DNA of 64,000 nt from a virus (IMGVR_UViG_3300035698_026482:118841-182840), one strand, 5' to 3'. Positions 57,288 to 57,394 are shown, counted from the first letter of the stretch. Numbers and translations are program-made. The notes: generated by a model not told the origin, from the letters alone.

Positions 57288-57394
57288 TGGTGTGTCCTGT
57301 GGGAATCGAACCCACTCCTCCCGAGACTCCCCGTCTCTTTTTCAAGAGAACGGATCACTGAACACGGTTGCCGACAGCCTCCGGCGCGGGACAC
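57288..57394 (-). ncRNA. 107-nt tRNA-like RNA with non-canonical central region
   Basis: GTGTCC/GGACAC acceptor, GTGGG-TTCGATT-CCCAC T-arm, ACCA end, 5-bp D-like stem, 53-nt centre without a canonical anticodon arm. Confidence 0.75.

Follow-up and report, generated by a model that had tools for sequence, protein, structure and literature searches.

A tRNA-shaped phage gene with an intact acceptor/T-arm half and no anticodon arm: mimic or relic?

The tRNA array of a large phage contains a 107-nt gene that has the shape of a tRNA, with the half that serves processing and recognition intact and the anticodon arm absent. It lies at 57288–57394 on the minus strand (position 1 of the element is 57394, position 107 is 57288) of the window, the whole 64,000-nt stretch of DNA analysed here, which is the terminal 64 kb of a 182,840-bp IMG/VR viral contig. 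The element is not a canonical tRNA. We suggest, tentatively and at somewhat short of an even chance, that it is a non-decoding tRNA mimic in which the top half has been kept; this was the fallback of an earlier reading made from the nucleotides alone (the sequence-only reading), and it stays the best functional reading. A pseudogene is a serious though lesser possibility, a spliced tRNA is improbable, membership of a known family has next to no probability, and what remains goes to other explanations.

The upper half of the molecule reads as a tRNA. The acceptor 5′ strand, GUGUCCC (positions 1–7; 57388–57394, minus strand), pairs with AGGACAC (57292–57298) through six Watson-Crick pairs (G1–C6 with G98–C103) and a C7×A97 mismatch (C7×A66), with pair probabilities of 0.98–1.0. 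The T arm, GUGGG-UUCGAUU-CCCAC (positions 80–96; 57299–57315, minus), has five Watson-Crick pairs at a probability of 0.98, and the acceptor 3′ strand runs on into the discriminator A (A104) and an encoded CCA (57288–57298, minus), an end that most genes of the array also carry. The base at −1 is U, as in most array neighbours, and one nucleotide (57287) separates the element from the tRNA-Val gene that follows in the same orientation (57286–57212). A search for units that combine a perfect T arm with at least six of seven acceptor pairs and CCA, run over the whole 183-kb contig and over the window with the fetched loci, picks up the element from 57394 to 57288 on the minus strand and finds such units in the tRNA array only, so its tRNA-like frame is not a product of chance. 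The sequence-only reading, which had described a 107-nt tRNA-like element inside the array with a perfect T arm, a tRNA-like acceptor and an ACCA end, was right on each of these points, all of which can be read directly in the sequence.

The centre, 53 nt between the D hairpin and the T arm, is rearranged. After G8 and C9, the minimum-energy fold has a D-arm-like hairpin, GCCG-GAGGCUGU-CGGC (positions 10–25; 57370–57385, minus), which contains GG and is followed by A26 and A27; its stem is 4–5 bp with a 6–8-nt loop, and its probability is just 0.28, the rival being a long-range helix between 11–19 and 67–75. A residual stem homologous to the anticodon stem is made by CCGUG (positions 28–32; 57363–57367, minus) and CUCGG (positions 70–74; 57321–57325, minus), with one U31×U71 mismatch and a probability of 0.13–0.18, and it closes 37 nt instead of 7. 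Directly 3′ of CUCGG comes the 5-nt variable loop GAGGA (positions 75–79; 57316–57320, minus). The 37-nt 'loop' opens with UUCAGUGAU (positions 33–41; 57354–57362, minus), which holds UCA and an alternative CAG, and within which AGUGA forms a five-nucleotide bulge of kink-turn-like appearance in the minimum-energy fold. The central hairpin, CCG-U-UCUCUU-GAAA-AAGAGA-CGG (positions 42–64; 57331–57353, minus), has 9 bp and a GNRA tetraloop, with U45 bulged and pair probabilities of 0.89–0.99 save for one terminal U-A pair at 0.52. Positions 28–74 make a single ~19-bp rod in the minimum-energy fold, with the AGUGA bulge and the GAAA cap, and the fold energy of the whole molecule is ordinary (z = −0.9). 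The hairpin that the sequence-only reading had seen in a rearranged centre is thus the dominant structure; of the alternatives listed beside it, the GAGAC/GUCUC pairing is there in the sequence but has a probability of 0.01, and the CCGU/ACGG stem, closing a 29-nt loop, adds up arithmetically but has an ensemble probability of 0.00.

The tertiary core has changed as well. U8, A14 and A21, near-universal in tRNA, are replaced by G, G and U, and of the core nucleotides U8, A14, G18G19 and A21 the element keeps the GG only; U8 and A14 are present in 15 of the 17 array tRNAs called by ARAGORN. At the element itself ARAGORN calls no tRNA by default or in the intron mode that had been proposed as a check, and the Rfam tRNA model (RF00005) gives a partial match of 14.8 bits (E 5.4), against a gathering threshold of 29 bits. 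As judged by a tRNA upper half, the element has six of seven acceptor pairs, five of five T-stem pairs, a UUCGAUU loop and A-CCA; a 5-bp stem with a 7-nt anticodon loop does not occur anywhere in positions 26–79. When a covariance model built from the element alone (R1) was aligned to ordinary tRNAs, 28–30/72–74 fell on anticodon stems, GAGGA fell on the variable loop and the interior was skipped, an alignment that points to the body plan of a tRNA with a ~30-nt loop insert.

Several other interpretations of the locus were tried and set aside. An interrupted tRNA-Arg of 208 nt, spanning the adjacent Arg-like gene and the element, is called by ARAGORN at a 70% threshold only, and the two genes show no significant similarity in their 5′ regions (178 of 500 shuffles reach an equal score). 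The central hairpin was considered as a mobile repeat, of which further copies are absent from the 183-kb contig. A kink-turn would be suited by a G39.A67/A40.G66 tandem, seen by inspection, and a 3-nt bulge, but in its C helix mismatches follow a lone C-G pair, and the contig lacks an L7Ae gene; it stays a lead. Antisense to the element, the plus strand at 57323–57342 reads GAGAC-UCCCC-GUCUC and then UUUUU, a terminator pattern that could halt antisense transcription into the array; the hairpin itself (57323–57337) is within chance expectation.

As the contig is estimated to be ~53% complete, the phage is counted as a jumbo phage. Its tRNA array runs on the minus strand from 63325 to 57132 and has 20 genes, 17 of them called by ARAGORN and 16 by Rfam, with HNH and GIY-YIG endonuclease genes scattered through it. 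By predicted function, the neighbourhood of the element appears to be one of RNA repair. Directly upstream is a DEDD exonuclease-like ORF (58028–57510, minus) that resembles phrog_192; downstream of the array are an Rnl2-type RNA ligase (57099–56065, minus) and a PrfH-like short release factor (55916–55296, minus); and RtcB (51432–50194, minus) lies ~6 kb from the element, which places two RNA ligases within 6 kb of it. The PrfH-like protein is a 206-aa release-factor homolog without domain 1 (RF-1 domain and the end of PCRF), and its gene and RtcB, ~4 kb apart, are a phage pair resembling the RtcB2-PrfH ribosome-repair pair of bacteria. In bacteria this module mends colicin-E3-type ribosome damage (PMC9304027, PMC9223846). 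A consensus scan identified a promoter-like site, TTGTAA-17-TAAAAT with TG (58035–58063, minus), upstream of the exonuclease-like ORF and no further promoter-like site between it and the element; one transcript from this site would cover the exonuclease-like ORF, the Arg-like gene, the element and the Val and Thr genes. A search of the 183-kb contig for a candidate partner protein found no Ro60/TROVE, L7Ae, PTH or PTH2.

No homolog of the element was returned from INPHARED by blastn, from IMG/VR with an exact 23-mer, an exact 21-mer or a gapped motif, or from GTDB. Synteny gave the same result, whether followed through RtcB (L002–L017), through the Rnl2-type ligase (as one protein, and as an alignment in IMG/VR and metagenomes; L018–L177) or through the exonuclease-like ORF (L183–L215), as did R1 over ~210 syntenic or related loci and 33 whole viral records. 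The homologs whose covariation the sequence-only reading had counted on were thus not found, which is weak evidence, since the phage is without close relatives in the collections. Relatives of its ligase reach 49% identity at best in IMG/VR, besides one 80% fragment (L105, sample Ga0307377) without the upstream region, and the nearest RNA-ligase relatives stand at 78% (P0054) and 66% (P0001). The best non-tRNA match of R1 (G001:28125-28227, 28.4 bits) proved to be an ORF end with a hairpin ahead of the following gene, lacking both T arm and CCA; tRNA features are absent from its matches in L117 and L139 (13.8 bits), and Enterobacter-phage matches over the T arm reflect the general likeness of T arms, in this case that of a tRNA-Leu.

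The T-arm/acceptor 21-mer does match three tRNA-Gly(UCC) genes (L180:6585-6657, L181:7089-7161 and L182:3397-3469). They hint that the element may descend from a Gly(UCC)-like tRNA, from which UCA would be one change away from UCC. The lead is weak, because these genes were picked by an exact 21-mer in the very region that matches, ~1 chance match is expected by a rough estimate, and the other tRNAs of the phage are unlike those arrays. The three arrays hold 23–28 genes per 8-kb locus in Alcaligenaceae and Pirellulaceae metagenome-assembled genomes, one of them on a 1.1-Mb contig.

How the element might work as a mimic can be outlined from its layout, from which we infer co-transcription, RNase P maturation with 3′ trimming, and an inability to decode. 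Transcription, shared with the array, would start at the promoter-like site that precedes the exonuclease-like ORF. An acceptor/T-arm minihelix is what bacterial RNase P recognises, and the enzyme would be expected to cut the 5′ end of the element after U(−1); the 3′ end would come from the RNase P cut before tRNA-Val, 1 nt downstream, once trimming had removed the extra U that follows the encoded CCA. This would leave a stable 107-nt RNA ending in ACCA, whose 37 nt would close into the GAAA-capped hairpin over the AGUGA bulge and so display no anticodon. Such an RNA could be read by factors that attend to the acceptor/T half, such as RNase P, the CCA-adding enzyme, host toxins directed at tRNA ends and phage repair enzymes, and it may act as a decoy, sponge or handle in a conflict of RNA damage and repair served by the neighbouring genes.

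The element might instead belong to a described family with a tRNA-like part, namely tRNA-Sec, tmRNA or a Y RNA of the YrlA type: tRNA-Sec has the anticodon UCA, tmRNA carries a long helix where the anticodon arm would be, and YrlA genes are often found near RtcB. Run permissively (E up to 10) with all its 4,227 families, Rfam nevertheless gave no tRNA-Sec (RF01852), tmRNA or ribozyme match at the element, and YrlA (RF02553) scored 18.4 bits against a cut-off of 69, straddling the junction with tRNA-Val, so that the Rfam check for Sec, tmRNA and Y RNAs that had been proposed ended with no known family matching. The details agree. A tRNA-Sec is opposed by the 5-nt variable region, the 4–5-bp D stem, the missing 7-nt loop and the discriminator, typically G in bacterial tRNA-Sec and A here; a tmRNA is opposed by an acceptor pair that is G3-C70 rather than G3.U70 and by the absence of a tag frame, for which 107 nt leaves no space, and ARAGORN -m found none. 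The ends of YrlA lie in its Ro60-binding stem, which makes it permuted relative to a tRNA, whereas those of the element sit in the acceptor stem, and the contig has no Ro60/TROVE. This reading is effectively refuted, and we give it almost no weight. An intron-containing tRNA, the lead proposal of the sequence-only reading, is improbable in our view and fares little better. Here a nuclease would cut the expanded loop twice and RtcB or the Rnl2-type ligase would rejoin the halves, the product being a UCA, UGA-reading tRNA if 38–59 are removed, or one with the loop UUCAGGU and the anticodon CAG if 38–67 are. In its favour are the UUCA/UUCAG placed where tRNA positions 33–37 would be, the two RNA ligases at hand, and the short conserved anticodon-loop insertions of Lak megaphage tRNAs, whose removal is unexplained (PMC6784885). 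We deleted every interval in positions 9–81 that leaves 66–100 nt (~1,750 variants) and submitted the products to ARAGORN, with an extra grid of 26–33-nt deletions at thresholds down to 80%. Six of the ~1,750 were called, each weakly, as 'Lys(CUU)' and with a broken anticodon stem, and no single deletion yielded a credible tRNA; the 22-nt removal (38–59) that was to have produced the UCA tRNA was rejected down to 80%, as were all 26–33-nt deletions, and the spliced forms have no cloverleaf in the minimum-energy fold and a probability of 0.00 for the CCGU/ACGG stem. By inspection, a bulge-helix-bulge is absent in both registers (UUCA faces GGGG, or UUC faces AAA, with no 3-4-3); a tRNA-intron endonuclease (PF01974) was not found in the 183-kb contig, which is ~53% complete; and the Rfam scan lacks a ribozyme family match, 22–30 nt being in any case far too short for a self-splicing intron. 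The G8, G14 and U21 deviations would persist in the spliced product, and since the same letters can be read as U-U-CAG, UCA is not privileged. Nor need RtcB be a sign of tRNA splicing: beside a release factor that lacks domain 1 it matches RtcB2-PrfH (PMC9304027), and the adjoining PrfH-like gene accounts for it with no need for a tRNA intron. A UGA reader, finally, would have no job in this phage, where TGA is an ordinary stop that is neither recoded nor read through: of 113 long open segments, 35 end in TGA, the in-frame stops between such segments are TGA in 2 cases against TAA in 11 and TAG in 4, and code 11 yields 76–91% ORF coverage. More doubtful still is the narrower form in which the insert is a protein-excised intron, cut by an anticodon-loop nuclease of host or phage and resealed by RtcB or the Rnl2-type enzyme; if true, it would give a UCA or CAG decoder only where the nuclease is active, a defence-triggered tRNA.

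The alternative that carries real weight is a recently inactivated tRNA gene, a quite conceivable account although we hold it to be less probable than the mimic. A ~30-nt palindromic insertion or duplication in the anticodon loop and point changes in the D region would have disabled a gene whose ancestor was possibly Gly(UCC)-like, and whose transcript may still be processed without having a function. This is favoured by the loss of U8, A14 and A21, an extra nucleotide before the anticodon stem and the C7×A66 mismatch, which fit decay as well as they fit a mimic, by the orphan status of the element, which leaves no covariation or purifying-selection signal to be read, and by the adjacent Arg(UCG)-like gene, whose faulty acceptor stem suggests a decaying end of the array. 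The HNH and GIY-YIG homing-endonuclease genes in the array make rearrangement plausible, and near-repeats within the insert (CCGUGUUC with CCGUUCUC, and ACGGGGAGU with UCGGGAGGA, by inspection) suggest nested duplication; the three tRNA-Gly(UCC) genes share the acceptor, the T arm and parts of the D region, and in them U7 pairs with A66, a link that is weak for the reasons given above. Also against the mimic are the D hairpin and outer stem, minority structures at 0.28 and 0.18, the ordinary overall stability, and the partner protein not found in the contig. In favour of the mimic, the damage stays within one half, the acceptor, T arm, T loop and CCA showing a single mismatch over ~35 nt, and the top half is intact in non-random ways (acceptor ~1.0, T stem 0.98, ACCA, U(−1) and 1-nt spacing). 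The anticodon end is not scrambled into random sequence; it is sealed by a neat, near-perfect and very stable GNRA-capped hairpin. In genomes as compact as those of phages, a dead gene does not usually last long. The mimic is favoured too by the tRNA body plan with a ~30-nt insert on which R1 settles, by the failure of every deletion to restore a decoder, by the RNA-repair neighbourhood, by CCA-ending look-alikes missed by ARAGORN in other fetched arrays (L022 and L011), and by published precedents in YrlA (PMC4201824), T4 RNAC/RNAD (PMC3014915) and the Lak insertions (PMC6784885).

The array holds further unusual members. The Arg(UCG)-like gene just upstream of the element (57420–57495, minus) scores 38.2 bits with Rfam over model positions 10–63; the D, anticodon and T arms are sound, with A20 and C35 in place and an encoded UCCA, but its acceptor, GUUUCUU/UGCGGGC, has five of seven pairs, four of them G.U, and ARAGORN makes no call. 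A 71-nt tRNA-Trp(CCA) (61012–61082, minus) is missed by ARAGORN and by Rfam at gathering; its acceptor, T arm and CUCCAAA loop are perfect, and a D arm of 4 bp and 4 nt abuts the acceptor. A similar uncalled Trp(CCA) is present at L011:9323-9396. The tRNA-Lys(UUU) and tRNA-Met(CAU) genes (60682–60769 and 63238–63325, minus) are each 88 nt with class-II-like extra arms, unexpected for these isotypes, whose loops share AACAC (GGUUAACACC and GGGAACACUUCCC). At 61873–62000 (minus), a 128-nt structured stretch with a UGGCGUG/CACGCCA closure, a GCCA end and an 8-bp hairpin inside may be a further RNA, other than a tRNA, that the array releases. Elsewhere, the 19-tRNA array of L011, from another phage, has two CCA-ending look-alikes without a D arm (L011:4665-4746 and L011:6121-6201), both with UAACC...GGUAAYUGGAG and one with an Arg ACG anticodon loop on a ~10-bp arm, and a 240-kb phage record has one between tRNA-Ile and tRNA-Asp (L022:6478-6555), whose central stem of 6 bp encloses a 16-nt loop and whose D region includes the word GGGUUCGA.

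The usual view of phage tRNA arrays is that they supplement codons or supply spares when defences cut tRNAs. If the element is a mimic, it would be the tRNA shape itself that serves the phage, either to bait host weapons directed at tRNA or to give the phage's own RNA-repair enzymes a handle. As a single orphan it may equally be a dying gene, and the present weight of the observation is moderate. Standard tRNA finders miss several members of this array, namely the element, the Arg-like gene and the Trp gene.

Among known systems, the YrlA tRNA mimics serve both RNase P and the CCA-adding enzyme as substrates (Chen et al., 2014, PMC4201824). The element resembles them (RF02553) in having a tRNA-like domain, in apparently not decoding and in its link to RNA repair and surveillance; it differs in that YrlA lies near Ro60, whereas the element has its ends in the acceptor stem, an encoded CCA and no Ro60 gene nearby in the contig. 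RNAC and RNAD of T4 are small stable RNAs from the tRNA region whose role is not known (PMC3014915; PMC9697503). The element, too, would be a small RNA from a phage tRNA gene region, but it is predicted only, whereas the T4 RNAs are expressed and are conserved among T4 relatives. The 'enigmatic' tRNA introns of Lak megaphages are conserved anticodon-loop insertions (Devoto et al., 2019, PMC6784885), and like the insert of the element they are short, sit in the anticodon loop of very large phages that have release-factor genes, and have no known mechanism of removal. Taking out the insert turns a Lak gene into a recognisable tRNA, whereas no deletion achieves this credibly in the element, and Lak inserts are identical across cohorts, whereas the element has changed core nucleotides, no known relatives and no stop recoding in its phage. 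Compared with a canonical tRNA-Gly(UCC), the element has 37 nt for a 7-nt loop and G, G and U at positions 8, 14 and 21, and unlike the three genes of L180–L182 it has A rather than U as the discriminator and encodes its CCA. With those three genes it shares, for all that, an acceptor of the form GUGUCCY/AGGACAC, an identical T arm, the GCCG...CGGCAA of the D region and a CCG.../...CGG stem.
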